Below are positions 15,605 to 57,783 of a DNA stretch of 64,000 nucleotides, piece after piece. The stretch spans positions 14,314 to 78,313 of the forward strand of contig CALGMT010000013.1 in NCBI GenBank assembly GCA_937958885.1. The letters run 5' to 3'. A model generated the notes under the pieces. It was not told where the DNA came from. It searched no databases and saw nothing but the letters and a program-made list of their open reading frames with translations. A program made the position numbers and the translations under genes. Every line of letters starts with the position of its first letter. Position 1 is the stretch's first letter. The stretch is from an uncultured bacterium (lineage in GTDB: Bacteria; Verrucomicrobiota; Kiritimatiellia; CAIVKH01).

Positions 15605-17292
15605 CCCGGCGCGAGGCGCGATCTGCCGGCGGAGGCCCCGGCGCGCCGAGCGTTATGCTGGCGCTCGCGTTTCTTGCAGTCGCGTGCGCATACCCGCTGA
15701 TCCTGCTGTTTGCGCAAAGCGTATTCCCCAATGTGCTCGGCGGCGATTGGAGCGGATTTCTTGCGCCCTATCGCCGACTGATCGCGACGCCGGATCTCGC
15801 GCAAATGCTCGGCAACTCGCTCGCGTGGGCCGGCGCGACCACGTTGGTCTCGTGGCTGTTCGGCATCCCGTGCGGCTTCATCCTCGCGCGTTGCGACCTG
15901 CCCGGCAAAGGATTCGCCCGCCTGACGATGCTCGCGCCGGTGATGACTCCGCCGTATATCGCGGCGCTGTCCTACATCACGATTTTGCAACCCGGCGGCT
16001 TCGGCGATGCGTTGGTCGGCGTGCCGGAGTTCGTGCGCGAGTGGTTTTTCTCGTTTCACGGCGTGACGCTCGTGATGGCGCTCGCCTCGTTCGGCTACGT
16101 CGCGCTCGGCATCGAGGCTGCGCTGCTGCGCTTGCCGAATCGCCTCGAAGACGCTGCGCTGCAACTCGGCGCCACGCGCGCGCGTTTGTGGCGCGCGGTG
16201 CTGATTCCGCTGTTGCTGCCGGCGATCCTCAACACCGGGCTGTTGGTCTTTCTGGATGCGCTCTCCAATTTCGGCGTGCCCGCCGTGCTCGGCACGCGCG
16301 CGAACCTCGCGCTGTTGCCGGCCGAAATTTACAACCTGTTGACTAGCTGGCCGATCGATTTGCCCGCCGCGACCGCGCTTTCGACGCTGCTCTGTGTCTT
16401 CGCACTCGTGTCGATGCAAGTCAGCGCGCGGCTGACTCGCAAAGGCATCGCCGCGGGCGGCCGCGCTGCGGGCACGCGGCTGATTCCGCTGACCGCGCCG
16501 CGCGCGGTTCTCGCGTGGCTGTGGATCGGCGGATTGTTCGTGTTGAGCACGCTGCTGCCGTTTGCGGCGATGATCGCGATGAGCTTCGTCGAGCGCTGGG
16601 CCGACGGCGCGCCGGTGTGGACCGCGCGCCACTACGCCGCGCTCTTCGCGCCCGGCTCCGGCGGGCGCGCGGCGCTGTTCACCAGCCTTGGCCTCGCGGT
16701 CGCCGCGGCGACGATCTGCGCCGGGGCGGGCGGCTTCATCGCGTATGTCGCCGCGCGCGCTGCGCCCGCCGCGCGCCGCGCGATCGAGGCGCTCGCGGTG
16801 CTCCCGCGCGCGCTGCCGAAGATCGTAATGGCGGTCGGCCTGATCCTCGCATGGAACGCGCCGTGGGTGCATGTCCAGGTATATGGGACCGTTTGGATGC
16901 TGTTGTTGGCCTACGTGGTCTGCTACATCTCCGACGCGCTCGCGTATGCCGGATCCGCGCTGCGCCGGATGAACGCGCGGCTGGAAATCGCCGCCGCGCA
17001 GCTCGGCGCGGGGCGTGCGGCGGTGTTCAGTCGCGTCGTCGCCCCGCAGCTCGGACCGGCGCTCGCGGCGGCGTGGCTGACGACCTTCATCGTGTGCGTG
17101 CGCGAGTTGGTCTGCTCGCTGTTGCTGCTGCCGCCCGGTGTGGAGACGACTGCGACATTTATTTTCAACCAATTTGAGCAAGGCGAGCTTGCCGCTGCGA
17201 TGGCGATGGCGACTGTGACCATCGGCGCGACGACGGTCGTCTTGCTGGCGCTGCAACAAACCCCGTTATTCAAATCAAAGGAGACCGCATGA
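15601..17292 (+). CDS. ABC transporter permease, duplicated domain (FbpB/AfuB-like)
   Basis: Two EAA loops (LEDAALQLGA, LEIAAAQLGA); ATGA overlap with the binding-protein gene. Confidence 0.93.
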   Translation: MTRREARSAGGGPGAPSVMLALAFLAVACAYPLILLFAQSVFPNVLGGDWSGFLAPYRRLIATPDLAQMLGNSLAWAGATTLVSWLFGIPCGFILARCDLPGKGFARLTMLAPVMTPPYIAALSYITILQPGGFGDALVGVPEFVREWFFSFHGVTLVMALASFGYVALGIEAALLRLPNRLEDAALQLGATRARLWRAVLIPLLLPAILNTGLLVFLDALSNFGVPAVLGTRANLALLPAEIYNLLTSWPIDLPAATALSTLLCVFALVSMQVSARLTRKGIAAGGRAAGTRLIPLTAPRAVLAWLWIGGLFVLSTLLPFAAMIAMSFVERWADGAPVWTARHYAALFAPGSGGRAALFTSLGLAVAAATICAGAGGFIAYVAARAAPAARRAIEALAVLPRALPKIVMAVGLILAWNAPWVHVQVYGTVWMLLLAYVVCYISDALAYAGSALRRMNARLEIAAAQLGAGRAAVFSRVVAPQLGPALAAAWLTTFIVCVRELVCSLLLLPPGVETTATFIFNQFEQGELAAAMAMATVTIGATTVVLLALQQTPLFKSKETA

Positions 17293-18620
17293 AAAAAGTT
17301 TTTACAGAGCATGGAAGTTTTAAAAAAAGTTTTTACAGAGCATGGAAATTTCTCGCCGCCGCGTGGCTGCTTCTCGGCGTGTGGAGCGCGGGCGCGGCGG
17401 AGATCTTCTTCAGCTTCCGCGCCGGCGAGGGCGGGGGACTGGGTCGCATCGAACTCGAAGATGCGACCGGCGCGTTAATCGCGCAGGAGGCGGTGTACAC
17501 GGCGCCGACGGCGCGCGAGGCGTACAAGGTGGCGCAGTCGCCCGAGGGCTACGCCGCGATGTCGATCAATGCGGAGGGGCCGGACAACCTGGTGATCCGC
17601 GCACCGGACGGACGCGTGCGCGCGCTGACCATTCCGGACAAACTCGATGAAATCCGCATCGAAGGCCGTCGCGCGGTCGTGGGCGGCGAGGAGGGCGGCG
17701 TATTTCTCGTGGATCTGGAGAAGGCGGAGATTGCGCGAACGTGGAGTCTGAAGGACGCGCTGAACCCGCCGGGGCGTCGGCCGGAGGACATCCGCATGGA
17801 AACGGGCGGACGCCGCGCGTGGGTGTCGCTGCAGAAGGACAACAAGAGCGGCAAGCGCGAGGGGAATCGCGTGGTCTATCTCGATTTGGAGAGCGGGAAC
17901 GTGCTGGCTGATTTGCGGCTGCCGCGCGATCGCGAATCGCTGCACTACGGGCGCGAGGGTGATTTCCGCCAGCGCGGGCCGGGGCCGGAGATCGTGATGC
18001 CGGTCGATTCGGCGAATACGCTGCTCGTCACGCTCGATTTGTACGGCGCAATCGGGTTTGCCGATCTTGCGGCCGCGCGCGCAGGGAAGTTGTCGAGCTG
18101 GTCCGTCCAATCGACCGCGCTGGATGAATCGTGGGGCACGGCGTTTCCCGATCGACTGGTTCCCTTTCGCGCGGGCGATCGCGATTTTGCGTTGGTGGTG
18201 AACGCCGGTGCGGCGGGCGGGGCGGCGGTGGTGGATGTGCAAAAGCGCTTGATTGCGCAGCGGATTCCCGCGCCGCATGGATTGTCCACGCCGGCGTTCA
18301 TTCCCGCCGCGCGCGCGATCGCAACAGCGAGCGGAGGCAAGCTGAAGGAGCGCGGATCGGAAGATGTCGAGAAGACCTATCAGCCGCGTTCAGAGGTCGT
18401 GGTGTTCGACGTGTCCGCCGACGGCGGGCCGCTGGCGATGCGGACGATTTCGACAGATGCACCGACTCATGCGCTGCGCGCGCTCGCGCCGGAGAAGAAC
18501 GCCCTCGTGTTGGTCAGCGCCGGGGAACAGGCGGATGGGTGGCTCGTGGTGGATATCGCGGAATCGCGCATCGCGCATCGCTTCGATGCGATCGGCCGCG
18601 TGATACGGATCGCGCCGTGA
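17289..18620 (+). CDS. Secreted hypothetical protein, probable beta-propeller
   Basis: ATGA overlap with the permease; signal peptide (LAAAWLLLGVWSAGA); repeated beta-blade-like segments (VFLVDLE, VVYLDLE, AVVDVQ, LVVDIA). Confidence 0.65.
   Translation: MKKVFTEHGSFKKSFYRAWKFLAAAWLLLGVWSAGAAEIFFSFRAGEGGGLGRIELEDATGALIAQEAVYTAPTAREAYKVAQSPEGYAAMSINAEGPDNLVIRAPDGRVRALTIPDKLDEIRIEGRRAVVGGEEGGVFLVDLEKAEIARTWSLKDALNPPGRRPEDIRMETGGRRAWVSLQKDNKSGKREGNRVVYLDLESGNVLADLRLPRDRESLHYGREGDFRQRGPGPEIVMPVDSANTLLVTLDLYGAIGFADLAAARAGKLSSWSVQSTALDESWGTAFPDRLVPFRAGDRDFALVVNAGAAGGAAVVDVQKRLIAQRIPAPHGLSTPAFIPAARAIATASGGKLKERGSEDVEKTYQPRSEVVVFDVSADGGPLAMRTISTDAPTHALRALAPEKNALVLVSAGEQADGWLVVDIAESRIAHRFDAIGRVIRIAP
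17292..17350 (+). repeat. 31-bp-period doublet of TTTTTACAGAGCATGGAA (locus 1)
   Basis: Cores at 17299-17316 and 17330-17347, read directly. Confidence 0.95.
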
Positions 18621-18642
18621 CGCGCGCGCCGCGCGAAATAGA

Positions 18643-19536
18643 TCAGCGCCAGAGGAAGAGCGCCAGCACCGTCGCGCCGTAGAGCGCGAGGTTGATCAAT
18701 AGCGGAGGGTCAGTGAGCAGCAACTGCTCGGGACGTCCGCCTTCTTCGCGCCGATACACGAGGTCGAGATAGCGGAACAGGCCAAAGACGACGAAGGGGA
18801 TCGTGAAGCCGAGTTTGTGCGAGCCGAATTTCGCGACTGTGTCCGGCCAGAGTGTGTACAGGCTGTAGGCCAGCAGCGTCGCCGCGGCGATCATCGGGAT
18901 CAGCACATCGAGCAGACGCTGGTCGTATCCGCGGAGGCTCGGACGCGACGCGCCGTCGGCGATGCCGAGCGCGACGAGTTCGTGCCGGCGTTTGCAGAGG
19001 GCGAGAAAAAGCGCGAGCAGCAGGGTGCACAGCAGCAGCCAGGGCGAGATGGCGACATGAATCACGACCGCGCCTGCCAGTGCGCGCAGGACGAAGCCGA
19101 TTGCGATAACAAGAATGTCCACCAGCGCGACGCGCTTCAGCGCGAGAGAATACAACGCTTGCAGCAGCACGTAGCCGGTGACGACGCCCGCGAATGCGCG
19201 ATCGAGGGCGAACGCGAGCGCAAGGCCGCCTGTCAACAGGACACCCGCCATCATCGCGCCTATGCGCGTCGATAGCGCGCCGGACGCAAAGGGGCGGAGG
19301 CGTTTGACGGGATGCGCGCGGTCGAGTTCGAGATCGCGAAGATCGTTCAAAATGTAGATTCCGCTCGAAACAAGGCAAAAAATGCCCGCGGCGGCGAACG
19401 CGGCGAGCGCGGAGGCCGCGTTCACCTGTTGCGCCGGATCGCCGAGCGCGAAGATCAGGGGCGCGAGGACGACCGCATTCTTGATCCACTGCTTCGGGCG
19501 CAGCGCGCGGAGCCCGCTGGCGAGCGCCGCGCTCAT
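18643..19536 (-). CDS. Decaprenyl-phosphate phosphoribosyltransferase (UbiA prenyltransferase family)
   Basis: LRPKQWIKN, YILNDLRD...DRAHP.KR.RP.ASG, KRRHEL. Confidence 0.9.
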   Translation of the reverse strand: MSAALASGLRALRPKQWIKNAVVLAPLIFALGDPAQQVNAASALAAFAAAGIFCLVSSGIYILNDLRDLELDRAHPVKRLRPFASGALSTRIGAMMAGVLLTGGLALAFALDRAFAGVVTGYVLLQALYSLALKRVALVDILVIAIGFVLRALAGAVVIHVAISPWLLLCTLLLALFLALCKRRHELVALGIADGASRPSLRGYDQRLLDVLIPMIAAATLLAYSLYTLWPDTVAKFGSHKLGFTIPFVVFGLFRYLDLVYRREEGGRPEQLLLTDPPLLINLALYGATVLALFLWR

Positions 19537-20300
19537 GCGGGAGACAGATGGGCCGCAACGCTGCGCGGGTGAGGATCACGCGGCGGCGAGCGGCGGAGTC
19601 TGCTGCGCAGCAGAAGTTTCCAGACCATCCACAGCGCCTCCTTGACGATTGCGCCGCTCATTTTCGACGCGCCCGATCGCCGCTCCTCAAACGTGATCGG
19701 CACTTCGGCGATGCGGAAGCCGTGCATCCACGCGTGATGCGTCATCTCGATCTGGAACGAGTAGCCGTTGGATTTGATCGCATCGAGATTGATGGTTTCC
19801 AGGACGGCGCGCCGGAAACATTTGAACCCGCCGGTGGGATCGGTGAACGGCATGCCGGAAATAATGTTCACATACACGGCGGCGCCTTTGCTTAAGATCA
19901 ACCGGCCCAGCGGCCAGTTAATGACGCGGATGCCGCCTTTGTAGCGCGTGCCGAGCACGAGGTCGGCCTGTTGGGCGGCGTCGCGAAACTTGGGAATGTC
20001 AGCGGGGTTGTGCGAGAAATCGCAGTCCATCTCGCCAATGAATTCATAGTTCCGGGCCAGCGCCCACTTGAAGCCGGCAATATAGGCTCGGCCGAGGCCC
20101 TGTTTTTGCTCGCGGTGCAGCACGTGGATGCGCGGGTCGGCCTCCGCCATGCGATCCAGCAATCGGCCGGTGCCGTCGGGCGAATTATCGTCCACAAACA
20201 GGATGTCAGCCCACGGCGCGTGCTGATGCACCGCGAGCGCCAGTTCCCGAACGTTTTCGATCTCGTTGTATGTGGGGACGATGACCAGGTAATCGTTCAT
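19533..20300 (-). CDS. Polyprenol monophosphomannose synthase (Ppm1/DPM1-like GT2)
   Basis: VPTYNE, VDDNSPDGTG, GLGRAY..GF, MDCDFSH.P, SNGYSFQIE, G.SKMS. Confidence 0.92.
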   Translation of the reverse strand: MNDYLVIVPTYNEIENVRELALAVHQHAPWADILFVDDNSPDGTGRLLDRMAEADPRIHVLHREQKQGLGRAYIAGFKWALARNYEFIGEMDCDFSHNPADIPKFRDAAQQADLVLGTRYKGGIRVINWPLGRLILSKGAAVYVNIISGMPFTDPTGGFKCFRRAVLETINLDAIKSNGYSFQIEMTHHAWMHGFRIAEVPITFEERRSGASKMSGAIVKEALWMVWKLLLRSRLRRSPPRDPHPRSVAAHLSPA

Positions 20301-20390
20301 GTGCGCGCAACTCTAGGGCGCGCCTGACGGCGGAGCAAGCGCGCAGGATGATTGTACCCCGTTTGCTACGACGATATAGTCCGTTCCTGC

Positions 20391-20951
20391 ATGAAGTTGG
20401 AACTGCGAACCTATGGCGATCCTGTCCTTCGCGCGCCGACCGCGCGGATCGCCGCGCCGGACGAGTCGGTGCGCCGGCTGATCGCTGACATGATGGAGAC
20501 GATGCACGCGGCGCAGGGCATCGGCTTGGCTGCGCCTCAGGTTGGACAGTCGCTCGCGCTGTGCGTCATTGATCTGCCCGCGGACTACGACACCACCGAG
20601 GACGGGCGTCGCTTGAATCCGGACGTCGCGATGCCGCTCGTGCTGCTGAACCCGGAAGTCGTGTCGGCCTCGAAGAAGATGAACGAGCACGAAGAGGGCT
20701 GCTTGAGCTTTCCGGGGCTGCGCGGGAATATCGAGCGCCCGCTGGAGATTGTCCTGCGCTACATGGATGAGTCCGGGGCGACGCACGAGAAGACGTTCGT
20801 CGATTTTCTCGCCCGCGTGATCCAGCACGAAGTGGATCACTTGAACGGCGTGCTGTTCATCGATCGGATGTCCATCGCGAAGCGATTCGCGATCAAAAGC
20901 AAGTTGAAGCGGTTGGAGCAGGAGACGAAGGAACGCCTCGGCTTGGCGTGA
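20391..20951 (+). CDS. def: Peptide deformylase
   Basis: GIGLAAPQVG, EGCLS, QHEVDHLNG. Confidence 0.97.
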   Translation: MKLELRTYGDPVLRAPTARIAAPDESVRRLIADMMETMHAAQGIGLAAPQVGQSLALCVIDLPADYDTTEDGRRLNPDVAMPLVLLNPEVVSASKKMNEHEEGCLSFPGLRGNIERPLEIVLRYMDESGATHEKTFVDFLARVIQHEVDHLNGVLFIDRMSIAKRFAIKSKLKRLEQETKERLGLA

Positions 20952-20957
20952 GCGCGG

Positions 20958-23501
20958 TCATCGCCATTCGTGTTTCGGATACTTTCGCTGCAGCTCCTGC
21001 TTGATGCGCGGGTAATGGTCGCGCCAGAACCCTGCGAGATCCTGCGTGATTTGGACCGGGCGCTGGCTCGGCGCGAGGATGTGCGCGGTCAACGCCACGC
21101 GGCCCATCGCGATTTTCGGAGACTCGTTCATTCCGTACAACTGCTGAATGGTCGCGGAGAAGTAGGGAGGCGTTTCGCCGGAGTACACGATGCGCGCGCT
21201 GCGTCCATTCGGCAGTGCGATGCGCTCCGGGGCGTGGCGATCCAGCAGTGCGCGCTGCTCGGGCGTCAGCCAGTCATGAACGATCGGGCGCACCTCGCGC
21301 TCTTTGATGTCCTTGTAGCTGACCGCGCCGTCGCACACGTGCGCGATGAGCAGGCGGCGATCCTCCGCGGTGACGATGGGAATGCCCAGCTCCGGGCACC
21401 AGGCGGCGAGACAGTTGACGCGAGTCAGCCACTGCTCGATCTGCTCATCCCACTTCTTAAGCGTCAATTCACCGCTCAGCACGCGTTCAGCGAGCAACTC
21501 GGCCGCTGCGTCGGCAGGCGGCTGTTCCGATCGCGAGGCGGACAACACGAGATCGCGAAACAGCGTGCGTTTTTCGGCATAGACGCGGCGCGCGGCGTCG
21601 TCCCACACGGCGACGGTTTCCTCGCGAAAGCCGTTGGGGAACAGTTCGCGCAGCCATTCCGGCTCGACTGCGGTGGCGAGCGAGAGCTGCACCTCGACCT
21701 CGCGCCCCTCGATCTCGTTGACCTCGGCTGCGACAAAGAGCGGCTTCTTCTGCACCACGCTGGAGCGCGCGAGCGCGCCGCGCCGGTTGTGGACGAGTTG
21801 GCAGCGCAGGGTCCCGCCGTCGAGGCGGCGCGCGAGGTGATCGGCGAAGCCGGTCAGCACGCACTTTTGGACCGCGCTGTCATCGGCCGGCGGGCCGTCG
21901 ATCGGCAGGCCCTGTGCGGCGGCCATGCGGAGGAACGCATCGTAGAGCGGGCGCACCTGCCGCGCCGCCTGTGCGTTGATGCCGACGCGACGGCAGGCGT
22001 CCGGCGAAAATCGATTCTTTTCCGCATAGGACCAGGCGCGCATCAGGACGAAGAAGTCGGAGTCGGCGCGCTCGCCGAACAGGTCGTCGCGCCGCTCGCC
22101 GGCGTCGCGGTCGGTTCGGCGCACGAGGATGTCGCGCCCCTGCGTGAGCGCGGCGATCAGCGCGACTTGCCGCGCGCCGCCGTAGGTTTCGGCGGCGACG
22201 AGCATCCGCGCGTAGCGCGGGTGCACGGGGAAGGCCAGCATGCGGCGGCCGAGTTCCGTAATGGCGCCGGTCTGTTCGTCCGCCGCGCCGAGGTCGCGCA
22301 GCAGGACTTCGGCGCGCGCCAGCGATTTCGGATCGGGCCGCTCGACCCAGGGAAAGGCGGCAAGGTCGGTGTAGCCCGCGGCCTTCAGCGTGAGGGCGAT
22401 CTCCGAGAGATCGAGGCGGCGCACCTCGGGCAATTCCTGAACGGGCCGCGCGCGGTGTTCGAGCTCGCTCCACAGCCGGATGCAGCAGCCGGGCGCGGTG
22501 CGCCCCGCGCGGCCGGCGCGCTGGTCGGCGGACGCGCGGCTGATGCGCTCGATCAGCAGGGTGTTGATGCCGCGATGCGGATCGTAGCGGGGAATCCGCG
22601 CGAGGCCGGAGTCGATTACGATGCGTATGCCGTCGATGGTGAGCGACGTTTCCGCCACATTGGTGGCGACGATGATCTTCCGTCGGTTCTGGCGCGCGAC
22701 GGCCTGATCCTGCTGATCGGGCGGCAGGTCGCCGTGCAGCGGAAGGATCGCGCAATCGGCGGCCTCCGGGCGGGTCTGCAATTCGGCGATCGTGCGCGCG
22801 ATTTCGTATGCGCCCGGCATAAAGATCAGCGCATCGCCGGGCCGTCCGGCGCGCGCGGCCTCCGCGAAGGCGGATGCGGCCTGCTCCCATACCGGCACAT
22901 CGTCGCGCGGGCGCGCGGCGGGCGGGGTGGGGCGGTAGCGGATGTCGACAGGAAACATCCGCCCCCGTGATTCGAGCACGTCGCAGGGGCGCAGGTAATC
23001 CTCGACCAAGCCGAGATCGAGCGTGGCGGACATCACGATCAGCCCGAGATCGGGGCGCGACTCACGCTGGAGCGCGCGCGCCCGCGCGAGGGTGATGTCG
23101 CCGTAGAGATGCCGCTCATGGAATTCGTCGAACACGATGCACGCGACGCCGCGCAGCGACGGGTCGGAGAGCATTTGCCGCAGCAGGATGCCCTCGGTCA
23201 CGTAGCGGATGCGCGTCGCAGCGGAGGTGACGTCTTCAAAGCGGATTTGATAGCCGACCTCGCGGCCGAGCGGCACGCCGCATTCCTGCGCCACGCGCGC
23301 CGCGAGCATGCGCGCGGCGATGCGGCGCGGCTGCAGCACAACGATCTGCCCGTCGCCGAGCGCGCCGCCGCGCAGCAGCATTTGGGGAACCTGGGTGGAT
23401 TTGCCCGATCCGGTCGGCGCCTGGATCAGCAGGCGTCGGTTGCGCGGATAGGCCGCGAGGAGGGCGGACTCCAGTTCGTAAATGGGCAGGCGTTCCGACA
23501 T
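20958..23501 (-). CDS. hrpB: ATP-dependent helicase HrpB
   Basis: APTGSGKST, DEFHER, MSAT, TNVAETSLTI, QRAGRAGR, C-terminal YPKHEWR. Confidence 0.93.
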   Translation of the reverse strand: MSERLPIYELESALLAAYPRNRRLLIQAPTGSGKSTQVPQMLLRGGALGDGQIVVLQPRRIAARMLAARVAQECGVPLGREVGYQIRFEDVTSAATRIRYVTEGILLRQMLSDPSLRGVACIVFDEFHERHLYGDITLARARALQRESRPDLGLIVMSATLDLGLVEDYLRPCDVLESRGRMFPVDIRYRPTPPAARPRDDVPVWEQAASAFAEAARAGRPGDALIFMPGAYEIARTIAELQTRPEAADCAILPLHGDLPPDQQDQAVARQNRRKIIVATNVAETSLTIDGIRIVIDSGLARIPRYDPHRGINTLLIERISRASADQRAGRAGRTAPGCCIRLWSELEHRARPVQELPEVRRLDLSEIALTLKAAGYTDLAAFPWVERPDPKSLARAEVLLRDLGAADEQTGAITELGRRMLAFPVHPRYARMLVAAETYGGARQVALIAALTQGRDILVRRTDRDAGERRDDLFGERADSDFFVLMRAWSYAEKNRFSPDACRRVGINAQAARQVRPLYDAFLRMAAAQGLPIDGPPADDSAVQKCVLTGFADHLARRLDGGTLRCQLVHNRRGALARSSVVQKKPLFVAAEVNEIEGREVEVQLSLATAVEPEWLRELFPNGFREETVAVWDDAARRVYAEKRTLFRDLVLSASRSEQPPADAAAELLAERVLSGELTLKKWDEQIEQWLTRVNCLAAWCPELGIPIVTAEDRRLLIAHVCDGAVSYKDIKEREVRPIVHDWLTPEQRALLDRHAPERIALPNGRSARIVYSGETPPYFSATIQQLYGMNESPKIAMGRVALTAHILAPSQRPVQITQDLAGFWRDHYPRIKQELQRKYPKHEWR

Positions 23502-23517
23502 GCGCTCGCGCCCTCGA

Positions 23518-25217: not shown

Positions 25218-25220
25218 CGC

Positions 25221-35365: not shown

Positions 35366-35441
35366 TGGTGAGCCGGGAGGGAATCGAACCCTCGACCACA
35401 AGATTAAAAGTCTCGTGCTCTACCAACTGAGCTACCGGCCC
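35366..35441 (-). tRNA. tRNA-Lys (anticodon TTT), CCA encoded
   Basis: 76-nt cloverleaf GGGCCGGTAGCTCAGTTGGTAGAGCACGAGACTTTTAATCTTGTGGTCGAGGGTTCGATTCCCTCCCGGCTCACCA. Confidence 0.97.
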
Positions 35442-44102: not shown

Positions 44103-44897
44103 TCAAGGTTCTTCTGGCAGCAGGTCGCTCACGGGGGTCAGATCTTCGCCGACGAGATGCTCCACCTCGTGGACCACGCCCGTGGGCGGGCGAATGCGGT
44201 CGATGAGCCGTTGCATGACTTCCCGCCGCATGAATATCGATCTGTCGAGCGTGTCCATGTCGGGGCTGAACGGGGAGAGGACCAGCAGCGGCACATCCGG
44301 TTCGACCGGTTGCGCCGGGGTCCATTCGACGCGGGGCCGAACGCCCATGGCGCGGGCGACATCCCGGTCGGCGGGCACGCCCAATTCGCGCATCAGCGCC
44401 ATCCAGTCGCTCGATCCTCGCGCCCACAGCGCGTCGAACGACGTGCGCGTGACCCAGTAGGCTCGCTCTTCGACGTTGACTGACGCCAGTCCGCGCCGCA
44501 GCCAGCCGATGGCGATGGTCTCGGTCGCCGCGGTCGAGTGGAGCGCCGCGAGCGCGGACGCGGTGGCGGGCGTTGCGCCCGCCTGGCGGAATGCCATGAC
44601 CAGCCAGCGCGCGGCCACCGCGCGTTCGCCGATGCCCCACGCGGCCAGGGCCGCCTGATGCCGGACCGCCGCGTCGTCCGGGCACACGGTGAGCAAATTG
44701 CTCAACAGGTGCGCTGCTTCGCCGTATCGGCGCCCCTCCAGCGCCGCGAGCGCCTCGCGCCACGCGGGATGAAGCGTCTCGTCGCGCTCGATGCATGCGC
44801 CGGGCGCGAACAGCCTGTAATCGGGAATATCCGGCGCGCCGCGTGCAATGGCCGCGTACAGCAGGATTCCCGCGATTATTCGCGCGCAGTGCTTCAT
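44103..44897 (-). CDS. Secreted TPR-like hypothetical protein
   Basis: Signal-like N-terminus MKHCARIIAGILLYAAIARG; TPR-like helices. Confidence 0.6.
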   Translation of the reverse strand: MKHCARIIAGILLYAAIARGAPDIPDYRLFAPGACIERDETLHPAWREALAALEGRRYGEAAHLLSNLLTVCPDDAAVRHQAALAAWGIGERAVAARWLVMAFRQAGATPATASALAALHSTAATETIAIGWLRRGLASVNVEERAYWVTRTSFDALWARGSSDWMALMRELGVPADRDVARAMGVRPRVEWTPAQPVEPDVPLLVLSPFSPDMDTLDRSIFMRREVMQRLIDRIRPPTGVVHEVEHLVGEDLTPVSDLLPEEP

Positions 44898-44994
44898 GCA
44901 AGCACGGTGAACGCGTCGGTCGAAAGCGTCAAGCGCGCGGAGTACGCGTGTGTGAGAGCGAGAACCCATTCCCATCGCGCGCAGTAGCGCGTCG

Positions 44995-45055
44995 AACAAA
45001 ATTTTTACAGAGCATGGAAGTTTTAAAATAATTTTTTACAGAGCATGGAACTTTT
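44995..45055 (+). repeat. 31-bp-period doublet of TTTTTACAGAGCATGGAA (locus 2)
   Basis: Cores at 45002-45019 and 45033-45050. Confidence 0.95.
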
Positions 45056-45343: not shown

Positions 45344-46492
45344 ATGAAAATCCACGAGTACCAAGGTAAAGAGTTGTTCCGACGCTACGGCATTCGCGCC
45401 CAGGACGGCGAAGTGGCGGAGACGCCCGAGGCGGTCGCGCGGATCGCCGAATCGTTCGGACGAACGGTCGTCGTCAAGGCGCAGGTGCATGCCGGCGGGC
45501 GCGGCAAGGCCGGCGGCGTGAAGCTCGCAAAAAGCCCGGAAGAGGCGGCACAAAAGGCGTCCGCGATTCTCGGTATGAACATCAAGGGCAGCCGCGTGCG
45601 GAAGGTGCTCGTGGCCGACGCCGTGGACATCGCGCGCGAGGTGTACCTGGCGATCATCCTCGACCGCAGTGCGCGCGGCATTCTTTTCATGGCCAGCGCG
45701 GAAGGCGGCATGGAGATCGAGGAGCTCGCGGTCACCGCGCCGGAGAAAATTCACCGCTTCCACGCGCTGTCCCGCGAATTTCCCGAGGCCGAGGCGTCGC
45801 GCGTCGCCCCGCTGCTCTTCGGACCCGAACAGGCGGCCACGGTGCTCGACATCATGCGGAAACTGTTCCGCATGTTCATCGAACTCGATTGCTCGCTGGT
45901 GGAGATCAATCCCCTCGTGCTGACGCCCGGCGGCGAGATCATCGCGGTGGACGGCAAGGTCAATTTCGACGACAACGCGCTGTTCCGCCATCCGGACGTC
46001 GAGGCGCTGCGCGACCTCGCGGAGGAAAATGCCAACGAGGTCGAGGCGAAGGCGCGCGGGTTGAGTTACGTGGAGCTCGAAGGCGACATCGGCTGCATGG
46101 TGAACGGCGCGGGTCTCGCAATGGCGACGATGGACATGATCAAGCTGTTCGGCGGGCGGCCCGCGAATTTTCTCGATGTCGGCGGCAGCTCGAACCCCGA
46201 CAAGGTCGTACACGCGTTCCGCATTATTTTGAGCCGGCCCGGCATCAAGGCTGTATTGATCAATATCTTCGGCGGCATTACGCGCTGCGACGACATCGCG
46301 CAGGGCATCCTTGAAGCCTTCCAGCGGATGTCGATCGACATCCCGGTTGTCGTCCGGCTGACCGGCACGAATGCGGCGGAGGGGCTCGCGCTGCTCGAGG
46401 GCAGCTCCCTGATCCCGGCAGCGACCTTCGCCGACGCGGTCAAAAAAGTCATTGAAGCGGCAGGCGGCCCCAACGTGGAAGACGAAGCATGA
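45344..46492 (+). CDS. sucC: Succinyl-CoA synthetase beta subunit
   Basis: [40 protein letters not shown]. Confidence 0.97.
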
Positions 46493-49456: not shown

Positions 49457-49562
49457 AAACGTACATCGCGCTGCAGCAATTTCCCTTACACCCCCCGCGC
49501 GAATCGGTTGACTCTGGTGCCGGTTTCCGTAGGCTGTCAACCTTTCAAGGAGAACCCGTATC

Positions 49563-50021
49563 GTGGCGCAGGTTTCGAAGACGATGAATACATGGCCCTG
49601 GCAGGGCCTCGGCAAGGCTCCGCCGGAGAAGAAGCCCATGCCGATCCGGCTGAAGGCGACGATTCAGGCCGCGGCCATGACCGCGATCGGGTTCATTATT
49701 TACAAAGTGTTCGACCATCTAATCGGCCCGGCGATCGTGTGGTCGCTCGCGGGCCTCGTGCTGATCGGCGGCTGGTTCGTGCCCCCGATTTTTCACGGCT
49801 TCGAAAAGTTCGGCGCGAAGATGGCCTACTGGGTATCCGCCGGACTGACATGGGGGCTGCTCGTCCCGTTCTTCTATTTGACGTTCACGTTCGGCCGCCT
49901 CGTGCTGATCTTGAGGAAAATCGACCCGATGGACCGCGCGTTTCCCGACAAGGCGCGCGACTCGTTTTGGACGCCGCGCCCGCCCGTGCCGAGCATGGAT
50001 CAATATCGAAAGCAGCACTGA
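49563..50021 (+). CDS. SxtJ-like membrane protein
   Basis: TM helices then FFY...FG.L.....DPM.R......SFW..R......QH; directly upstream of a carbamoyltransferase. Confidence 0.65.
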   Translation: MAQVSKTMNTWPWQGLGKAPPEKKPMPIRLKATIQAAAMTAIGFIIYKVFDHLIGPAIVWSLAGLVLIGGWFVPPIFHGFEKFGAKMAYWVSAGLTWGLLVPFFYLTFTFGRLVLILRKIDPMDRAFPDKARDSFWTPRPPVPSMDQYRKQH

Positions 50022-50044
50022 AGAGGCCGTCGGCCGAAAAACCC

Positions 50045-51889: not shown

Positions 51890-51911
51890 CGCCGCCGGCC
51901 GCGCAGCGGCT

Positions 51912-52481
51912 TTAGCTGTGCAGCGAAGGCCGCTCGAGCAGCTTGAAGAACTCCGTGCGCGTGGGGAGAGAGTCTTGGAAACAGCCGACCACGGCGGACG
52001 TGATCATGAACGAGTTCTGCTTCTCCACGCCCCGCATCATCATGCACAAGTGCTGAGCCTCGACGACCACACCGACGCCGAGCGGTTGAAGAACATCCAT
52101 TAGCGCATCCGCGATTTGTTGCGTTAACCGCTCCTGAATTTGCAGCCGACGCGCATACATGTCCGCGATGCGCGCGAGCTTGCTGACGCCGATCACCTTG
52201 TCCCTCGGGATGTAGCCGATGTGGCAGCGTCCGATGAACGGCAGCAAGTGGTGCTCGCACATGCTGTAGATTTCGATGTCCTTGACGATCACCATGTGCC
52301 GCGAATGCGCCTCAAACAACGCGCCGTTCACGATCTCTTCCACGTTTTGGAAATAACCCTTCGTGAGAAACTGCCACGCCTTCGCCACGCGGTGCGGGGT
52401 TCGGACCAAGCCTTCGCGCTCGGGATCCTCGCCCAGCGCGACCAGCATCTGCTTGATTAGCGGCTCCATCTCGTTTTCCAT
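51912..52481 (-). CDS. folE: GTP cyclohydrolase I
   Basis: [33 protein letters not shown]. Confidence 0.97.
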
Positions 52482-52532
52482 GTTTATACCCTAGCGTGAC
52501 GTCGGCTCGACGTCATTTGTTATCGTTCGGTT

Positions 52533-53318
52533 ATGAAGATCATTACGTTGATGACCGATTTTGGAACAACCGACGGCTACGTCGCGGCCATGAAGGGGGT
52601 CATTTTCGACGCCTGTCCCCGCGCGCAGGTGGTCGATGCGGTCCACGACATTCCCGCGCACGACATCCGCGCCGGCGCGTGGGCGCTGCGGCACTATTGG
52701 AAATTGTTCCCCGAAGAGACGATCCATGTTGCGATCGTCGATCCGGGAGTCGGCTCCGCGCGGCACCCATTGATGGCCCGGGCGGATGGCCGCTGGTTGA
52801 TCGGACCGGACAATGGCGTGTTTTCGTGGGCGCTGCGCGAAAGCCGACGGTTTGAGGCGTGGACGCTTTCGCCCGCCATCCGCCGCCGCCTCGCGGTCGG
52901 GCACACCTTTCACGGGCGGGATGTTTTTGCCTTCGCGGCCGGGATGCTCGCGTCAGGGGTATCGCCATCCGCGCTTGCGGGAAAGCCCATCGCTCCTATG
53001 CGCTTCGATTGGCCTCTTCCTATTAAAGGAAGGTCATCCATCCGCGGAACGGTGATCCACATTGACCGGTTCGGAAACGCCGTCACGAACATTCCGGCGC
53101 CCACGATCGCGCGACTCGGCCCGAACCTCTCAATCGCCTGCGAAAGTTTTCGTACGCGTGGATTCGGGCGAATTTATGCAGATGTTTCTGTTGGAAAGCA
53201 GGTTGCGCTAATGGAGTCGACTGGATTGCTTGAACTGGCCATCCGCGAAGGCAGCGCTTCCGAGCAGTGCGGGATCAAGCTCGGATCGCGAGTTATAGTT
53301 GAAAAGCATAAAAAATAG
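52533..53318 (+). CDS. SAM hydroxide adenosyltransferase (DUF62, chlorinase/fluorinase superfamily)
   Basis: ITL.TDFG, VDPGVGS.R, GPDNG, TFHGRD.F, IDRFGN..TN. Confidence 0.9.
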   Translation: MKIITLMTDFGTTDGYVAAMKGVIFDACPRAQVVDAVHDIPAHDIRAGAWALRHYWKLFPEETIHVAIVDPGVGSARHPLMARADGRWLIGPDNGVFSWALRESRRFEAWTLSPAIRRRLAVGHTFHGRDVFAFAAGMLASGVSPSALAGKPIAPMRFDWPLPIKGRSSIRGTVIHIDRFGNAVTNIPAPTIARLGPNLSIACESFRTRGFGRIYADVSVGKQVALMESTGLLELAIREGSASEQCGIKLGSRVIVEKHKK

Positions 53319-53340
53319 AGTCTATTTAAAATGTGACCCA

Positions 53341-53399
53341 TTATTTTTTGAAAAATAAGCGCATAATTTTGTTGTAATCGATTTTTGCTGTGCTATCTT
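53341..53399 (+). promoter_or_regulatory. Putative ilvBN promoter with upstream AT-rich palindrome
   Basis: TTGTAA (53372-77), 16-bp spacer ending TGc, TATCTT (53394-99); inverted repeat TTATTTTT-TG-AAAAATAA at 53341-53358. Confidence 0.5.
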
Positions 53400-53421
53400 T
53401 TGATAAATCAAGAGGTAATTC

Positions 53422-55230
53422 ATGAGCGCAACAGCAGTAGAGCACAAAACTTCTCCAGAAAAAGCCAAAGATCAAAAATCATCGATTGAGGTCAAGGGGC
53501 CATCGGTTTCTCGTGAGGTGCTGGATGGCGCGCAGGCGCTCGTGAGGGGGCTGGAGCGGCAGGGGGTGGAATACATTTGGGGCCTGTCGGGCGGCGCGGC
53601 GATCCCGATTTTCGACGCAATCGTCACGACTGGTACGAAAATCAAACTCGTGCTCGTGCGGCACGAGCAGGGGGCGACGCACATCGCCGACGGATACGCC
53701 CGTGTGACCGGACGGCCCGGCGTGGTGCTCGTGACCAGCGGTCCGGGAGCGACGAACACCGTGACCGGCATTCTGACCGCGCACATGGATTCCGTGCCGA
53801 TGGTGGTGCTGACAGGACAGACGATTTCGCCCATGCTGGGCAAAGACGCATTTCAAGAGGCGGACGTGTTCGGCATTACGATGCCGATCGTCAAACACAG
53901 CTACCTCGTCAAGAAAACCAACGACATCCCCCGGATCGTCAAAGAGGCGTTCCACATCGCCAACACCGGGCGACCGGGGCCTGTGCTCATTGACATCCCG
54001 AAGGATGTGAGCTCCGGTCCGTGCACCGCCGATCTCGACCCGCCGATGGATTTGCCCGGCTATAACCCCGCGATCCCGGTGGACAAGGCAGGCGTGATGG
54101 CGATTGCCGAGGCGCTGCGCAAGTCGAAGCGGCCCGTGTTGCTCGCCGGTCACGGCGTGCTGATCTCCCGCGCGTGGGATTCGCTCCGCCGCCTCGCCGA
54201 AACCCTGCAGGCGCCGGTGACCACCACGCTGCTCGGCAAGGGCGCGTTCCCCGAGAACCACCCGCTATCGCTCGGCATGCTCGGCATGCACGGCACTGCG
54301 TATGCGAACAAAGCGATGATCGAATGCGACCTGGTGATGTCGATCGGTTCGCGCTTCGACGACCGCATCATCGGCCAGGCCCCGAAATTCTGCAAAGATG
54401 CCGTGCGCATCCACATCGACATCGACGCCGCCGAAATCAACAAAATGATCAAGGTGCACCACTGGTGCGTGGGCGACGCGCGCGAAATTCTTGATGAACT
54501 CACGCAGCACGTGCGGCGTCTGGACACCAACGACTGGCTGAACCATCTCAACGGCTACAAAAAGAAATATCCGCTGAAGTACAAGAAGTACGGCGGACTC
54601 AAGATGCAGTACATCCTCGACGAGCTCGACAAGCTGACCGGCTGCAACGCGATCATCTCGACCGACGTCGGCCAGCACCAGATGTGGTCCGCGCAATTCA
54701 ACAAAACCATCCGGCCCGACGGCTGGTTGAGCTCCGGCGGCGCCGGCACGATGGGCTACGGGTTCCCCGCCGCGATCGGCGCGCAGTTCGCGAAGCCGAA
54801 GGACCAGGTGTGGGCCGTGGTCGGCGACGGCGGGTTCCAGATGACGATGTGCGAACTCGCCACCGCCGCGCTGCACAAGCTGCCCGTTAAGGTCCTCGTG
54901 CTGAATAATCACTACCTCGGCATGGTGCGCCAGTGGCAGGAACTGTTCTTCGAGAACCGCGAGAGCGGTGTGAATCTCGAGGGCAACCCGGACTTCGCCA
55001 AACTCGCCGAGTGCTATCCCGGAGCGAAGGGCTTCACGCTTAAGCGCGGCGCGGACATCCGCAAGATTCTCAAGCGGGCTATGGACTACACCGACGGCCC
55101 GTCCGTGATCAATGCGGAGGTGGAGAAAGCGGACAATGTGTATCCGATGATCCCCGCCGGCCGCGCGATTGAGGACATGATCCTCGAAGCCCCGAAATAC
55201 AAAATGGAAAAACCCACCGGCTCGACCTGA
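53422..55230 (+). CDS. ilvB: Acetolactate synthase large subunit
   Basis: RHEQGA, TSGPGATN, GMLGMHG, DVGQHQMW, GDGGFQM..NN..LGMVRQWQ. Confidence 0.97.
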   Translation: MSATAVEHKTSPEKAKDQKSSIEVKGPSVSREVLDGAQALVRGLERQGVEYIWGLSGGAAIPIFDAIVTTGTKIKLVLVRHEQGATHIADGYARVTGRPGVVLVTSGPGATNTVTGILTAHMDSVPMVVLTGQTISPMLGKDAFQEADVFGITMPIVKHSYLVKKTNDIPRIVKEAFHIANTGRPGPVLIDIPKDVSSGPCTADLDPPMDLPGYNPAIPVDKAGVMAIAEALRKSKRPVLLAGHGVLISRAWDSLRRLAETLQAPVTTTLLGKGAFPENHPLSLGMLGMHGTAYANKAMIECDLVMSIGSRFDDRIIGQAPKFCKDAVRIHIDIDAAEINKMIKVHHWCVGDAREILDELTQHVRRLDTNDWLNHLNGYKKKYPLKYKKYGGLKMQYILDELDKLTGCNAIISTDVGQHQMWSAQFNKTIRPDGWLSSGGAGTMGYGFPAAIGAQFAKPKDQVWAVVGDGGFQMTMCELATAALHKLPVKVLVLNNHYLGMVRQWQELFFENRESGVNLEGNPDFAKLAECYPGAKGFTLKRGADIRKILKRAMDYTDGPSVINAEVEKADNVYPMIPAGRAIEDMILEAPKYKMEKPTGST

Positions 55231-55266
55231 TCGGTCGCTCCGACACTCCCCCATAGAGGTGCCTCC

Positions 55267-55794
55267 ATGACCACGTCCGTTGCCAACCCCCACATCGCCC
55301 CATACACCGGCCATCACACCATCAGCGTGTATGTGGCGAACAAACCCGGCGTGCTCGCGCGCATCGCGCAGGTGTTCGCGCGGCGCGGCTACAACATCGA
55401 ATCCCTCGTCGTCTCCCCCGCGATGGACGGTCAGTTTTCTCGCATGACCATCGGGTTGAGCGGCAATCCGGAGGGGATGGAGCAGATCATCAAGCAAACC
55501 AGCAAGTTGATCGATGTGCTCCGCTGCACGGATCATACAGACGACGACGCTGTGGTGAAAGAACTGGCGTTGGTGAAGGTCGGCGCCAGCGCAGCCCAGC
55601 GCGCCGAAGTCCTGCAGATCGGCGAACATTTCGGCTGCAAGACTGTGGACCTTACCGAAACCTCGATGATCCTGCAGTGCACTGGCAACAGCGAAAAAAT
55701 CGACGCGCTGGTCGGCATGCTCGGCAAATTCCGCATCATCGAGCTTGTCCGAACCGGGAAAGTCCTGATGGCCCGCGGCGACGGCTTGACCTGA
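55267..55794 (+). CDS. ilvN: Acetolactate synthase small subunit
   Basis: NKPGVLARI..VF.RRGYNIESL, ELALVKV, ELVRTG. Confidence 0.96.
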   Translation: MTTSVANPHIAPYTGHHTISVYVANKPGVLARIAQVFARRGYNIESLVVSPAMDGQFSRMTIGLSGNPEGMEQIIKQTSKLIDVLRCTDHTDDDAVVKELALVKVGASAAQRAEVLQIGEHFGCKTVDLTETSMILQCTGNSEKIDALVGMLGKFRIIELVRTGKVLMARGDGLT

Positions 55795-55864
55795 TCGGGC
55801 GGGGCGCACGGGCGGTATCGCGCGCGGATTTCCCTGTTGCACGGGTTTCCTGTACGCTGTCGCC

Positions 55865-56911
55865 ATGCATCTCGATGCGGCACGCGTAAAAGCCCGAGCC
55901 TTGGAGCTGGGCTTCGATATTGCGGGAATCGCGCGCGCGGGCCGCGCGGAGCGGGCGGCAGCGTTTCACGCATGGTTGGAAGCCGGGCGGCATGCCGACA
56001 TGGCGTGGATCGCGCGCGAGCCGGAGCGGCGCTGCGAAATCAGCCGCGTGCTGCCGGAAGCGCGCTCGATGATTGTGGTCGGCCTCTCGTATTTTATCGC
56101 CGATCCGCCTCCCGAATACTGGAGCGATCCCTTGCGCGGCCGCATCGCGCGCTACGCCTGGGGCCGCGACTACCACGACGAACTGCTCCCGCGTCTGCGC
56201 GAACTCGCGGCATGGCTTGACGCCGAGGCCGGCCGCCCGGTCGCGCACCGGGCCTATGTGGACACCGGCCCCGTGCTGGAACGCGAATGGGCCGCTCGGG
56301 CGGGACTTGGATTTATCGGCAAACACACGCTGTTGATTCATCCCGAGTGGGGGTCGTATCTCTTTCTCGGCGAGCTCTTGGTCGATCTCGACCTCGAGCC
56401 GGATCCGCCCGGGGACGATCGCCTTGGAACCTGCGGCAGTTGTCGGCGCTGTCAGGATATCTGTCCCACGCACGCCTTTCCCGCGCCGTACATCCTCGAC
56501 AGCCGCCTGTGCATTTCCTACCTGACCATTGAACATCGCGGCGCGATTCCCGAAGCGTTGCGCCCGAAGATGGGCAACTGGATTTACGGGTGCGACGAGT
56601 GCCAGCAGGTTTGTCCGTGGGTCAAGCAGTTCTCCCGACCGGGACGCGCTCGTTTTCTGAACTACGATCCCGAATGGATCGCCCCCCGCCTGGCCGACTT
56701 GGCGGCGCTTGACGAAGAAAGATTCCGCGCGCGTTTTCGCGGCTCGCCGATCCCGCGGACAAAGCGGCGCGGGTTGTTGCGAAATGTCTGCATCGCGCTC
56801 GGCAATTCCGGGAGCGCAGAAGCGATTCCGCCGCTTGAAATCGCCGCGCGCGACCCAGACCCGCTGATTGCCGAGCACGCCCGCTGGTCCCTCGCGCGGC
56901 TCGTCCGATGA
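55865..56911 (+). CDS. queG: Epoxyqueuosine reductase
   Basis: ARYAWG.DYH, VDTGPVLER, CGSC.RC.D.CP, CISYLTIE, GCDECQ.VCPW. Confidence 0.96.
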   Translation: MHLDAARVKARALELGFDIAGIARAGRAERAAAFHAWLEAGRHADMAWIAREPERRCEISRVLPEARSMIVVGLSYFIADPPPEYWSDPLRGRIARYAWGRDYHDELLPRLRELAAWLDAEAGRPVAHRAYVDTGPVLEREWAARAGLGFIGKHTLLIHPEWGSYLFLGELLVDLDLEPDPPGDDRLGTCGSCRRCQDICPTHAFPAPYILDSRLCISYLTIEHRGAIPEALRPKMGNWIYGCDECQQVCPWVKQFSRPGRARFLNYDPEWIAPRLADLAALDEERFRARFRGSPIPRTKRRGLLRNVCIALGNSGSAEAIPPLEIAARDPDPLIAEHARWSLARLVR

Positions 56912-56978
56912 TGTGAACAGAGCATGAAATCCGTGCGCGCATTACGCCATCAATCGCGACGCCGGTCACCCCATTCCC

Positions 56979-57576
56979 GCCGCTGGAAATTTATGACATC
57001 ACACTTCCGCCGACGGAGCGGCGAACCTGCAGCACCAGAAAGACCTCGCCGATTCGAGGAACGCCGCAGTCTGCGCCCACTTCAACAGCCTCTCCCTCTC
57101 CCGCCGCGCGGGAGAGGGCGGGGGTGAGGGCGACGATCCATCAGCTCGGCGGGCTCTGAGATTCCGCTCTTCCGTTTCCTTTCAATAATCGCGCCACAGT
57201 TGTAGCTCCGGCGCTCTGGCCGCTGGAAATTTATGACATCACACTTCCGCCGACGGAGCGGCGAACCTGCAGCACCAGAAAGACCGCGCCGATTCGAGGA
57301 ACGCCGCAGTCTGCGCCCGCATCCACAGCATCCCCCTCTCCCGCTGCGCGGGAGAGGGCGGGGGTGAGGGCGACGATCCATCAGCTCGGCGGGCTCTGAG
57401 ATCCCGCTCTTCCGTTTCCTTTCAATAATCGCGCCACAGTTGTAGCTCCGGCGCTCCGCCGCTGGAAATTTATGACATCACACTTCCGCCGACGGAGCGG
57501 CGAACCTGCAGCACCAGAAAGACCGCGCCGATTCGAGGATCGCCGCAGTCTGCGCCCGCATCCACAGCATCCCCCT
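56979..57576. repeat. Tandem repeat, ~240-bp unit, about 2.5 copies
   Basis: Units start GCCGCTGGAAATTTATGACATC at 56979, 57219 and 57458; about ten differences between units 1 and 2. Confidence 0.95.
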
Positions 57577-57712
57577 TTCCACCGTGTGGAAGAGGATCAT
57601 GCCGGTCATCGATCAGATACACGCCTATTTCACCCTATGAGAAAATTCAGCGCCTGACCCCTTTTTTCCGCCGCCCCCTCTCCCGCCGAGCGGGAGAGGG
57701 TTGGGGTGAGGG
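57094..57712. repeat. REP-like palindromic element CCCTCTCCCGC-N3-GCGGGAGAGGG-NN-GGGGTGAGGG, three copies
   Basis: Copies at 57094-57130, 57334-57370 and 57676-57712; stem invariant, loop varies (CGC/TGC/CGA). Confidence 0.9.
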
Positions 57713-57714
57713 TC

Positions 57715-57783
57715 CTGGAGTTTCAAAAATTTTTTACAGAGTATGGAACTTTGTAAAAAAGTTTTTACAGAGCATGGAACTTT
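57715..57783 (+). repeat. 31-bp-period doublet of TTTTTACAGAG(C/T)ATGGAA (locus 3)
   Basis: Cores at 57731-57748 (one C>T) and 57762-57779; remnant TGGAGTTTC one period upstream. Confidence 0.95.

Follow-up and report, generated by a model that had tools for sequence, protein, structure and literature searches.

Introduction

Short sequences that recur between genes belong to several described systems. Repetitive extragenic palindromic (REP) sequences and the bacterial interspersed mosaic elements (BIMEs) are themselves bound by host proteins, and the gene for the REP-associated tyrosine transposase (RAYT, a Y1/HUH transposase) usually has its REPs on either side and is inherited together with them. 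Known DNA-uptake signals occur about once per kb, often within genes. The sites of the regulator NrdR, according to one report (PMC2892513), consist of two tandem palindromic boxes whose centres lie 31-32 bp apart, with two dimers on one face of the DNA. Here we describe a family of short, phased arrays first noticed in a 64,000-nucleotide stretch of DNA (the window) from an uncultured bacterium of the class Kiritimatiellia (contig CALGMT010000013.1, positions 14,314 to 78,313). Each of three loci in the window carries a doublet of an 18-bp core, TTTTTACAGAGCATGGAA, with a period of 31 bp.

A preliminary description regarded these doublets as lying at three unrelated loci and as a candidate for an undescribed system. 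We find instead that the genome holds 85 such arrays and that the window doublets represent a local and asymmetric form of an ancient element found across the class, which elsewhere is a true palindrome, TTCCAA-NNN-TTGGAA. The geometry of the arrays recalls tandem NrdR boxes and their distribution recalls REP sequences; we tentatively favour the reading that they are cooperative binding-site arrays of a candidate architectural DNA-binding protein that would act as a dimer and would have changed its specificity in the clade to which this genome belongs.

Results

Arrays with a strict period of 31-32 bp

The genome that holds the window (G000) is a draft metagenome-assembled genome of 87 contigs (2.58 Mb, 63.5% GC, 88% completeness). 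With an array defined as a cluster of matches to the 15-base core containing at least one copy with no more than one mismatch, G000 has 85 arrays, 46 on the + strand and 39 on the - strand; the earlier statement that all copies lie on the + strand thus holds within the window and fails genome-wide. Fifty-three arrays are doublets, 48 with a period of 31 bp and 5 with a period of 32 bp. The others were scored as three direct copies (18), four copies (1), '<>>' (11), '<>' (1) and singles (2). The '<>>' layout has a first direct copy with an inverted copy abutting it at a distance of 16 bp, and a second direct copy 31 bp further on. The exact 18-mer occurs 96 times, core units with up to two mismatches number 195, and many copies have identical linkers.

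The pseudo-palindrome TT(A/C)CA-N5-TGGAA, correctly recognised in the preliminary description, proved to be the key to the wider family. Its relaxed form, TT[AC]CA-N5-TG[GT]AA, has 218 matches in G000, a density of about one per 12 kb, against 4 for the backwards control. Successive matches no more than 120 bp apart lie at only three distances, 16 bp (21 cases), 31 bp (81) and 32 bp (12). Further copies are therefore plentiful, and the spacing preference glimpsed in the window is absolute across the genome.

A class-wide element with lineage dialects

Only G000 (173 hits with at most one mismatch) and G010 (36 hits), a genome of another genus in the same family, have the exact core in abundance. 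Genomes of the same genus (G001, G003 and G005) have many arrays in which the architecture and the 31-bp period are kept and the core is TTTTTACAGACGTTGGAA; their second copy often ends in TGTAA, TGCAA or TGAAA, and in G001 the left arm is fixed as TTACA while its partner base in the right arm may be G, T, C or A. In G010, TTACAGASCATGGAA occurs alongside perfect palindromes of the form TTCCAT-NNN-ATGGAA, and the arrays, with a spacing of 31-32 bp, reach five or six copies. The doublets of G004 and G006, GAC-TTCCAA-NNN-TTGGAA-GTC with a 32-bp spacing, have linkers without A/T richness; both genomes also contain rare half-sites or copies of the TTACAGAC type. In G030, where one 82.9-kb contig was inspected, the unit is a 19-bp palindrome, TTTTCCAAGSCTTGGAAAA, present at 17 sites (11 single, 6 arrays of two to four copies) on a contig with 39 gaps of at least 60 bp; none of its 30 copies lies inside a gene. 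The 31-32 bp period is found in G010, G030, G004 and G006 as well as in the genus of the window.

A core-independent phased pattern, TGGAA-N16/17-TTMCA-N5-TGKAA, tallied as adjacent pairs on both strands rather than as arrays, was present in 147 of 301 sampled genomes of the class and in all 21 genomes of the family. Its counts ranged from a few to 1,830 in G030 and 2,731 in G011, against 0 or 1 per genome for the backwards control. Copies across the class keep the half-sites and differ among themselves in the 3-nt centre and in the linker, as is also seen in a position table for G006; this is the pattern of a dimer operator and not that of recently copied DNA. The asymmetric dialect is found in G000 and three relatives, at loci shared with relatives that use other dialects, and a system confined to this genome can no longer be maintained.

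Inheritance in place

The arrays appear to be vertically inherited, although the samples compared were small (20 arrays from G001, G003 and G005, 20 from G010, and 16 and 10 sites). The arrays from G001, G003 and G005 were found through BLAST to the array itself, and their flanks were mapped onto G000. A mappable flank was available for 17 of the 20, and 15 of these 17 adjoin a G000 array, 12 of the 15 being bracketed by both flanks; together they represent 10 distinct G000 arrays. Among the 20 G010 arrays, 7 adjoin an array in G000 and another 4 fall in G000 gaps that have none. G004 uses another dialect than G000; its sites for which both flanks could be mapped, 4 in number, all fall on G000 arrays. 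Even the layout of the tsf-queF gap is kept, with motif offsets of 0, 16 and 48 in G004 and of 0, 16 and 47 in G000. The sdhC-sdhA gap holds an array in G000, G001, G003 and G005; in other genera the gap is short and array-less, and G004, G006 and G009 have unrelated filler there. Copy number differs between some orthologous arrays.

Flanking intergenic DNA is hardly more alike at orthologous loci (identity 0.63) than at non-orthologous ones (0.59), while half-sites, T-tract and period are kept. The presence of arrays at shared loci with diverged flanks excludes a recent mobile burst as the source of the uniformity in G000, and the persistence of the half-sites implies either constraint on the arrays or continuing homogenisation. 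Locus-specific linker bases are retained while the cores differ in comparisons of contigs C77 and C36 with G001 and of C10:84454 with G003; one G001 array retains G000-type cores, and one copy on C77 in G000 has an intermediate core, GACATTGG. Ends of a miniature inverted-repeat transposable element (MITE) or an insertion sequence (IS), or footprints of a mobile element as earlier proposed, were rejected since arrays occupy orthologous loci in other species (G001, G003, G005 and G004). The filled/empty locus C10:84454 shows no target duplication, and no inverted copies bounding a longer element were noticed in a search that was not exhaustive.

Two G006 arrays 17 kb apart (G006:C1:81288-98100) map to either side of a single G000 array (C29:67994-68039). 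The 17-kb segment between them is located elsewhere in G000, so that a rearrangement breakpoint coincides with the arrays; a genomic island was rejected for this segment, which contains housekeeping genes and no integrase. Several G001 and G003 arrays (loci L026, L027 and L029) are nested between inverted copies of a repeat, ggtgtcgggtttcaggtgtcagg ... cctgacacctgaaacc, where repeats appear to accumulate within repeats.

Gene context and orientation

Genes were called with a self-trained codon-usage caller (2,132 genes, 90% coding), which is crude, especially for start codons. Within these calls, 24 of the 218 G000 motif matches fall inside genes. The 76 arrays assignable to a gap comprise 57 co-directional, 12 divergent and 7 convergent cases, whereas G000 gaps of at least 60 bp are 60% co-directional, 30% divergent and 10% convergent. 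Arrays are thus depleted in divergent gaps (p = 0.004) and enriched in co-directional ones (p = 0.005). The co-directional gaps that carry an array have a median length of 130 bp and are nearly filled by it. Whichever way the array points, the neighbouring stop codon is closer (median about 20 bp) than the start codon. In 8 of the 85 arrays the predicted start falls on an ATG inside the last core, which is roughly chance level. The 17 sites of the G030 contig are distributed over 7 co-directional, 5 divergent and 5 convergent gaps.

The orientation of arrays relative to flanking or downstream genes is mixed, co-oriented about as often as opposed, with no significant relation to gene strand in G000 (p = 0.085). 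The co-orientation of the window doublets, and with it the suggested role in the replichores, was not borne out: array orientation against local GC skew in G000 gave an odds ratio of about 1, a comparison that is uninformative for a palindrome, and neighbouring arrays were not significantly co-oriented (22 vs 13, p = 0.18). Because there is no genome-wide orientation bias, the co-orientation seen in the window is local chance.

The first 40 arrays by contig order, the window's contig excluded, have 77 flanking genes, which Pfam annotation showed to be housekeeping genes of every kind, with no functional theme and no adjoining regulator. Arrays lie within operon-like pairs (ruvA-ruvB, sdhC-sdhA, rmlA-rmlC and tsf-queF) and also adjoin recA, mutS, dnaX, gap, sodA and rplS. 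A sigma-54 or other promoter reading, attempted by eye, was discarded on account of inconsistent spacings and contrary gene context. An array at C57:1514-1559 ends about 27 nt before what by eye resembles the 5' end of a tRNA gene, and its flanks are 90-94% identical in G001.

RNA structure and candidate transposases

Arrays 1 and 2 of the window show no more folding than their shuffled counterparts, with z from +0.4 to +1.7 across both strands. A four-copy palindromic array of G030, by contrast, gave z = -7.6, with a folding energy of -61.5 kcal/mol, and z = -5.9. In the G000 clade, self-complementarity has gone while position, period and copy number are kept. The lack of any excess fold in G000, taken with the occurrence of arrays in both orientations relative to genes, indicates that the conserved feature acts on double-stranded DNA. 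The sole matches to Rfam 15 at gathering thresholds were a tRNA (window) and a TPP riboswitch (G030 contig), and at permissive thresholds an array gave only generic hairpin hits far below the cut-off; a described RNA family was rejected on these grounds. Intrinsic terminators were also rejected, since G000 has no hairpin and the palindromic dialects place a T-tract 5' and an A-tract 3' of the stem.

G000 encodes about nine diverged Y1/HUH (IS200-like) paralogues (contigs C10, C17, C18, C32, C49, C55, C63 and C81), which are unusually long at about 300-340 aa, share 31-60% identity, and are not IS copies. All 21 family genomes have members of this protein family whatever the dialect, G010 in the form of two fragments alone, and it is widespread across the class. 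None of the six G000 Y1 genes that have a gene call lies within 3 kb of an array. Nor was Y1_Tnp associated with arrays in a tally restricted to families with at least five genomes and summed by hand: it was detected in 53 of the 88 genomes from array-rich families and in 44 of the 89 from array-poor families (Fisher, p = 0.17). The array-dense genomes G030, G010, G040, G043 and G047 have no Y1_Tnp at E <= 1e-12. A RAYT partner was therefore rejected for want of adjacency and co-occurrence. The idea that the long paralogues carry a DnaA-like C-terminal domain was likewise dropped, as Pfam found only Y1_Tnp in the two that were tested.

The three arrays of the window

A search with TTTTTACAGAGCATGGAA at up to three mismatches returned exactly the six copies of the preliminary description, all on the + strand, where 0.00 are expected (no match in 100 dinucleotide-preserving shuffles). 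They form three pairs with an exact 31-bp period and an A/T-rich, 13-nt linker of locus-specific sequence, and they differ from one another by a single C>T change (Table 1). The three contexts originally assigned to them, a coding-region start, a divergent gap and a convergent gap, hold with independent gene calls. The perfect TTCCA-N5-TGGAA palindrome reported near array 3 is present, a second one was found, and ACAGAGCATG does occur at 56917-56926, as an isolated 10-mer.

Table 1. Phased arrays and single palindromes located in the window
Feature	Position	Strand	Description
Array 1	17292..17351	+	Two direct 31-bp units: A6G tract, TTTTTACAGAGCATGGAA, 13-nt A/T linker, second core, ATTT; cores at 17299 and 17330
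Array 2	44994..45055	+	Two direct units, cores at 45002 and 45033
Array 3	57724..57783	+	Two direct units; the cores are at 57731, with a single C>T change, and at 57762
Single class-type palindrome TTCCACCGTGTGGAA (TTCCA-N5-TGGAA)	57577..57591		Motif search
Single class-type palindrome TTCCACGTTTTGGAA	52338..52352		Motif search

Array 1 falls within the first 21 codons of an open reading frame (17289-18620), just after its ATG. This frame of 443 aa, which has no Pfam match, starts 3 nt before the array and translates both units (MKKVFTEHGSFKKSFYRAWKF...) ahead of a segment that resembles a signal peptide. At C56:6227, another gene carries its doublet in the same frame, again before a signal peptide. 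Array 2 occupies the divergent gap between 44103-44897(-) and a SucC-like gene, 45344-46492(+), whose upstream region has broken synteny in the relatives compared. Array 3 lies between convergent genes, 2 nt from the stop codon of a MauE-like gene, 57782-58219(-), and its 3' T-tract overlaps that codon.

Metagenome contigs from three DNA runs of one study break at arrays; one contig of the X2 metagenome bridges array 3 with no indel inside it. One X2 contig has, at window position 57647, an insertion of 20 bases that looks like a local duplication, directly upstream of a GC-rich hairpin repeat. The insertion represents strain-level variation that adjoins array 3 and lies outside the array itself. 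The hairpin repeat (57676-57713), ccctctcccgccgNgcgggagagggttggggtgaggg, belongs to a second repeat family, with 41 copies genome-wide by a loose pattern, often within about 100 bp of an array; it is also found near arrays on C18, C36, C42, C46, C68, C70, C73 and C77. A third, low-complexity intergenic family consists of CGGAA/TTCCG units, sometimes in inverted pairs, adjoining arrays elsewhere in G000 (C10:55060-55210, C10:84400-84450, C14:1060-1100 and C14:19400-19440); such repeats are present as well at one locus that has an array in G010 and none in G000. The sole Rfam match of the window, the tRNA gene, is at 35369-35441 on the minus strand.

Discussion

A candidate architectural protein and its sites

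The arrays are each composed of one to six copies of a 15-bp motif with two half-sites, ancestrally TTCCAA-NNN-TTGGAA, at centre-to-centre distances of 31-32 bp, or three helical turns, sometimes with an abutting copy at 16 bp. Each motif may be the site of a sequence-specific dimer, and neighbouring dimers would bind cooperatively on one face of the helix, because a fixed centre distance across varying linkers is the signature of dimers that touch along one face. Such a protein would be architectural, either nucleoid-associated or marking gene boundaries, rather than the regulator of a gene set, since its sites have unrelated housekeeping genes as neighbours and are often found within operons. 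In the G000 clade, the left half-site would have changed to TTACAG, the centre would have become fixed and the linker would have become an A-tract joined to a T-tract, yielding TTACAG-AGC-ATGGAA, with existing sites converted in place. Either the protein would have changed its specificity, or a paralogue or heterodimer recognising two unlike half-sites would have arisen. NrdR provides a geometric precedent and not a candidate, because G000 has one ordinary NrdR gene, which also disposes of an extra NrdR paralogue as the binder, and because the NrdR box is unrelated in sequence to the array motif. That the arrays are the sites of a DNA-organising protein was already suggested in the preliminary description, and it remains, tentatively, the best reading. 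The larger proposal, of a class-wide chromosome-architecture system in which a dimeric protein oligomerises on palindromes spaced by three turns and co-evolves with its sites into dialects, is one that we hold with somewhat more doubt.

Several results weigh against binding by an architectural protein. Neither a binding protein nor a gene family co-occurring with the arrays was found, and every gene call rests on the crude, self-made caller. Gene context varies by genome, with divergent gaps depleted in G000 and not in the small G030 sample (5 of 17). The more distant G006 (56% GC) shares neither of its two cleanly mapped sites with G000, and the only G000 array with a mapped position in the 400-kb sample of G006 lacks a counterpart there. 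Evolution in place did not reach significance when linkers were compared, identity being 0.751 for orthologous and 0.742 for non-orthologous pairs (n = 14, p = 0.34). Finally, the G000 copies, with their 96 exact 18-mers and fixed asymmetric centre, are far more uniform than protein binding needs, and sites of the AB type exceed those of the AA or BB types by more than 10:1. Such uniformity around a fixed asymmetric centre points to copying or conversion rather than to independent selection at each site.

Alternative explanations

For this reason the main competing explanation, and a strong one though we think it less likely, is a REP-like or BIME-like interspersed repeat whose copies are homogenised where they stand. 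Here the arrays would have no dedicated host function and would persist in permissive intergenic spots, their likeness being maintained through ectopic gene conversion, slippage inside arrays or an unrecognised transposase that targets existing copies, with the G000 dialect having swept through the family. The extreme uniformity and the many identical linkers in G000 fit this well, as do the unrelated housekeeping neighbours, the closeness to stop codons with few arrays in divergent gaps (which is also usual for REPs and BIMEs), the frequent adjacency of two other repeat families, the variable copy number of orthologous arrays, the rare TTACAGAC-type copies already present in G004 and G006, and the long-lived, vertically inherited REPIN populations described in the literature. 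It is harder to reconcile with a Y1 gene family, the defining partner of such repeats, that neither adjoins the arrays nor tracks them, and with the class-wide variation of centres and linkers around conserved half-sites, which argues for selection on the half-sites rather than copying. Moreover, neutral inserts of 47-93 bp should lose their half-sites where flanks are randomised, and the three-turn phasing is left unexplained. The protein-site and REP-like readings are not mutually exclusive.

The other rivals are less probable. A hairpin acting as RNA or as single-stranded DNA, whether in protection of mRNA 3' ends, processing, termination or as a cruciform, would account for either orientation through the palindrome, for the perfect palindromes in most of the class, which in multi-copy arrays of G030 fold into long nested hairpins, for some single G030 copies that tip GC-rich, terminator-like hairpins in convergent gaps, and for the closeness of G000 arrays to stop codons. 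We nonetheless consider it improbable, since G000, G001, G003 and G005 have kept loci and period and lost self-complementarity, the right-arm partner of the fixed TTACA arm in G001 may be any base, the tracts have the wrong polarity for a terminator in either orientation, Rfam offers no match, and arrays also occur in divergent gaps. It is very unlikely that the arrays are a DNA-uptake or other self-recognition signal spread by molecular drive, with biased uptake or recombination converting sites in place into dialects. Dialects at orthologous loci within locus-specific flanks, both orientations, placement after stop codons and a core that is very uniform within each genome are all in keeping with such a signal; the low density in G000, the mostly intergenic position and the strict tandem phasing, which is foreign to known uptake signals, are not. 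Equally slight is the chance that the arrays are promoter elements or operators of a global regulator of adjacent genes, despite their dimer-operator look, their NrdR-like geometry, and the arrays that stand just upstream of genes or supply a predicted start. Against it stand the depletion in divergent gaps with enrichment in short co-directional ones, the arrays inside operon-like pairs, the seven in convergent gaps, the mixed orientation to the downstream gene and the flanking genes that share no functional theme.

Significance

If the arrays are docking sites, intergenic spaces would be marked lineage-wide at hundreds to thousands of sites per genome in a group of mostly uncultured marine bacteria for which we know of no nucleoid-associated or boundary system. 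They would punctuate a large share of the gaps (about 17 of the 39 gaps of at least 60 bp on the 83-kb G030 contig), and the switch in the G000 clade would have arrived at an asymmetric site that abolishes all hairpin potential. The series of dialects from palindrome through half-changed to fully asymmetric sites at the same loci would then constitute a natural experiment on binding specificity and on how hundreds of sites shift together. Were they selfish repeats instead, they would be a REP-like family lacking the usual transposase partner, which bears on the persistence of repeats. In practical terms, the arrays break short-read assemblies and cause false N-terminal extensions in gene calls.

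Comparison with known systems

Like the REP, BIME and REPIN-RAYT elements of Enterobacteria and Pseudomonads, the arrays are short, ancestrally palindromic and intergenic, with tens to thousands of copies. They share with them also a position near gene 3' ends or inside operons, a species-specific sequence, vertical inheritance and long persistence. Unlike REPINs, they have no adjoining or co-occurring RAYT-type Y1 transposase, and their units are direct tandem copies at exactly 31-32 bp rather than inverted pairs. Unlike REPs, the copies share half-sites class-wide and not centres or linkers, and the G000 dialect is non-palindromic; the hairpin palindrome of a REP is met only in other dialects, such as that of G030. 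Two palindromic boxes of about 15-16 bp at 31-32 bp are also the arrangement of tandem NrdR boxes in the report cited above (PMC2892513), but those are restricted to a few nrd promoters, whereas 85 arrays stand beside unrelated genes and make up no regulon.

The sites of ParB (parS), Noc, MatP (matS) and SlmA are comparable as 14-16 bp palindromes bound by dimers, present in tens to hundreds per genome and with shiftable specificity. Those sites are mostly single and often in genes, whereas the arrays are intergenic and phased, with no strand or replichore bias found in G000. The DNA uptake sequences (DUS) of Neisseriaceae and uptake signal sequences (USS) of Pasteurellaceae likewise have a uniform core, dialects that differ by lineage at conserved loci, copies in either orientation and a frequent position after genes, but G000 differs from them in a much lower density, near-total exclusion from genes and strict tandem phasing. 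Mycobacterial interspersed repetitive units (MIRUs) resemble the arrays in being dispersed direct tandem repeats of operon intergenic spaces with variable copy number among relatives; the arrays depart from them in a 31-bp unit that is not a multiple of three, in either orientation, in a motif of two half-sites and in a class-wide palindromic origin. No description of the arrays was found in Rfam, in a full-text search for the half-site words, judged by titles and the openings of abstracts, or in a search for REP with candidate phylum names, whose hits lacked the REP term, supplements not being covered, and the window doublets match no known IS end or regulator box as searched. We see a fair chance that the arrays mark an undescribed architectural system. 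The family resembles REPs and BIMEs in its distribution and persistence, NrdR boxes in its geometry, and uptake signals, parS and Noc sites in its dialects, yet it departs from each of them in what defines it.

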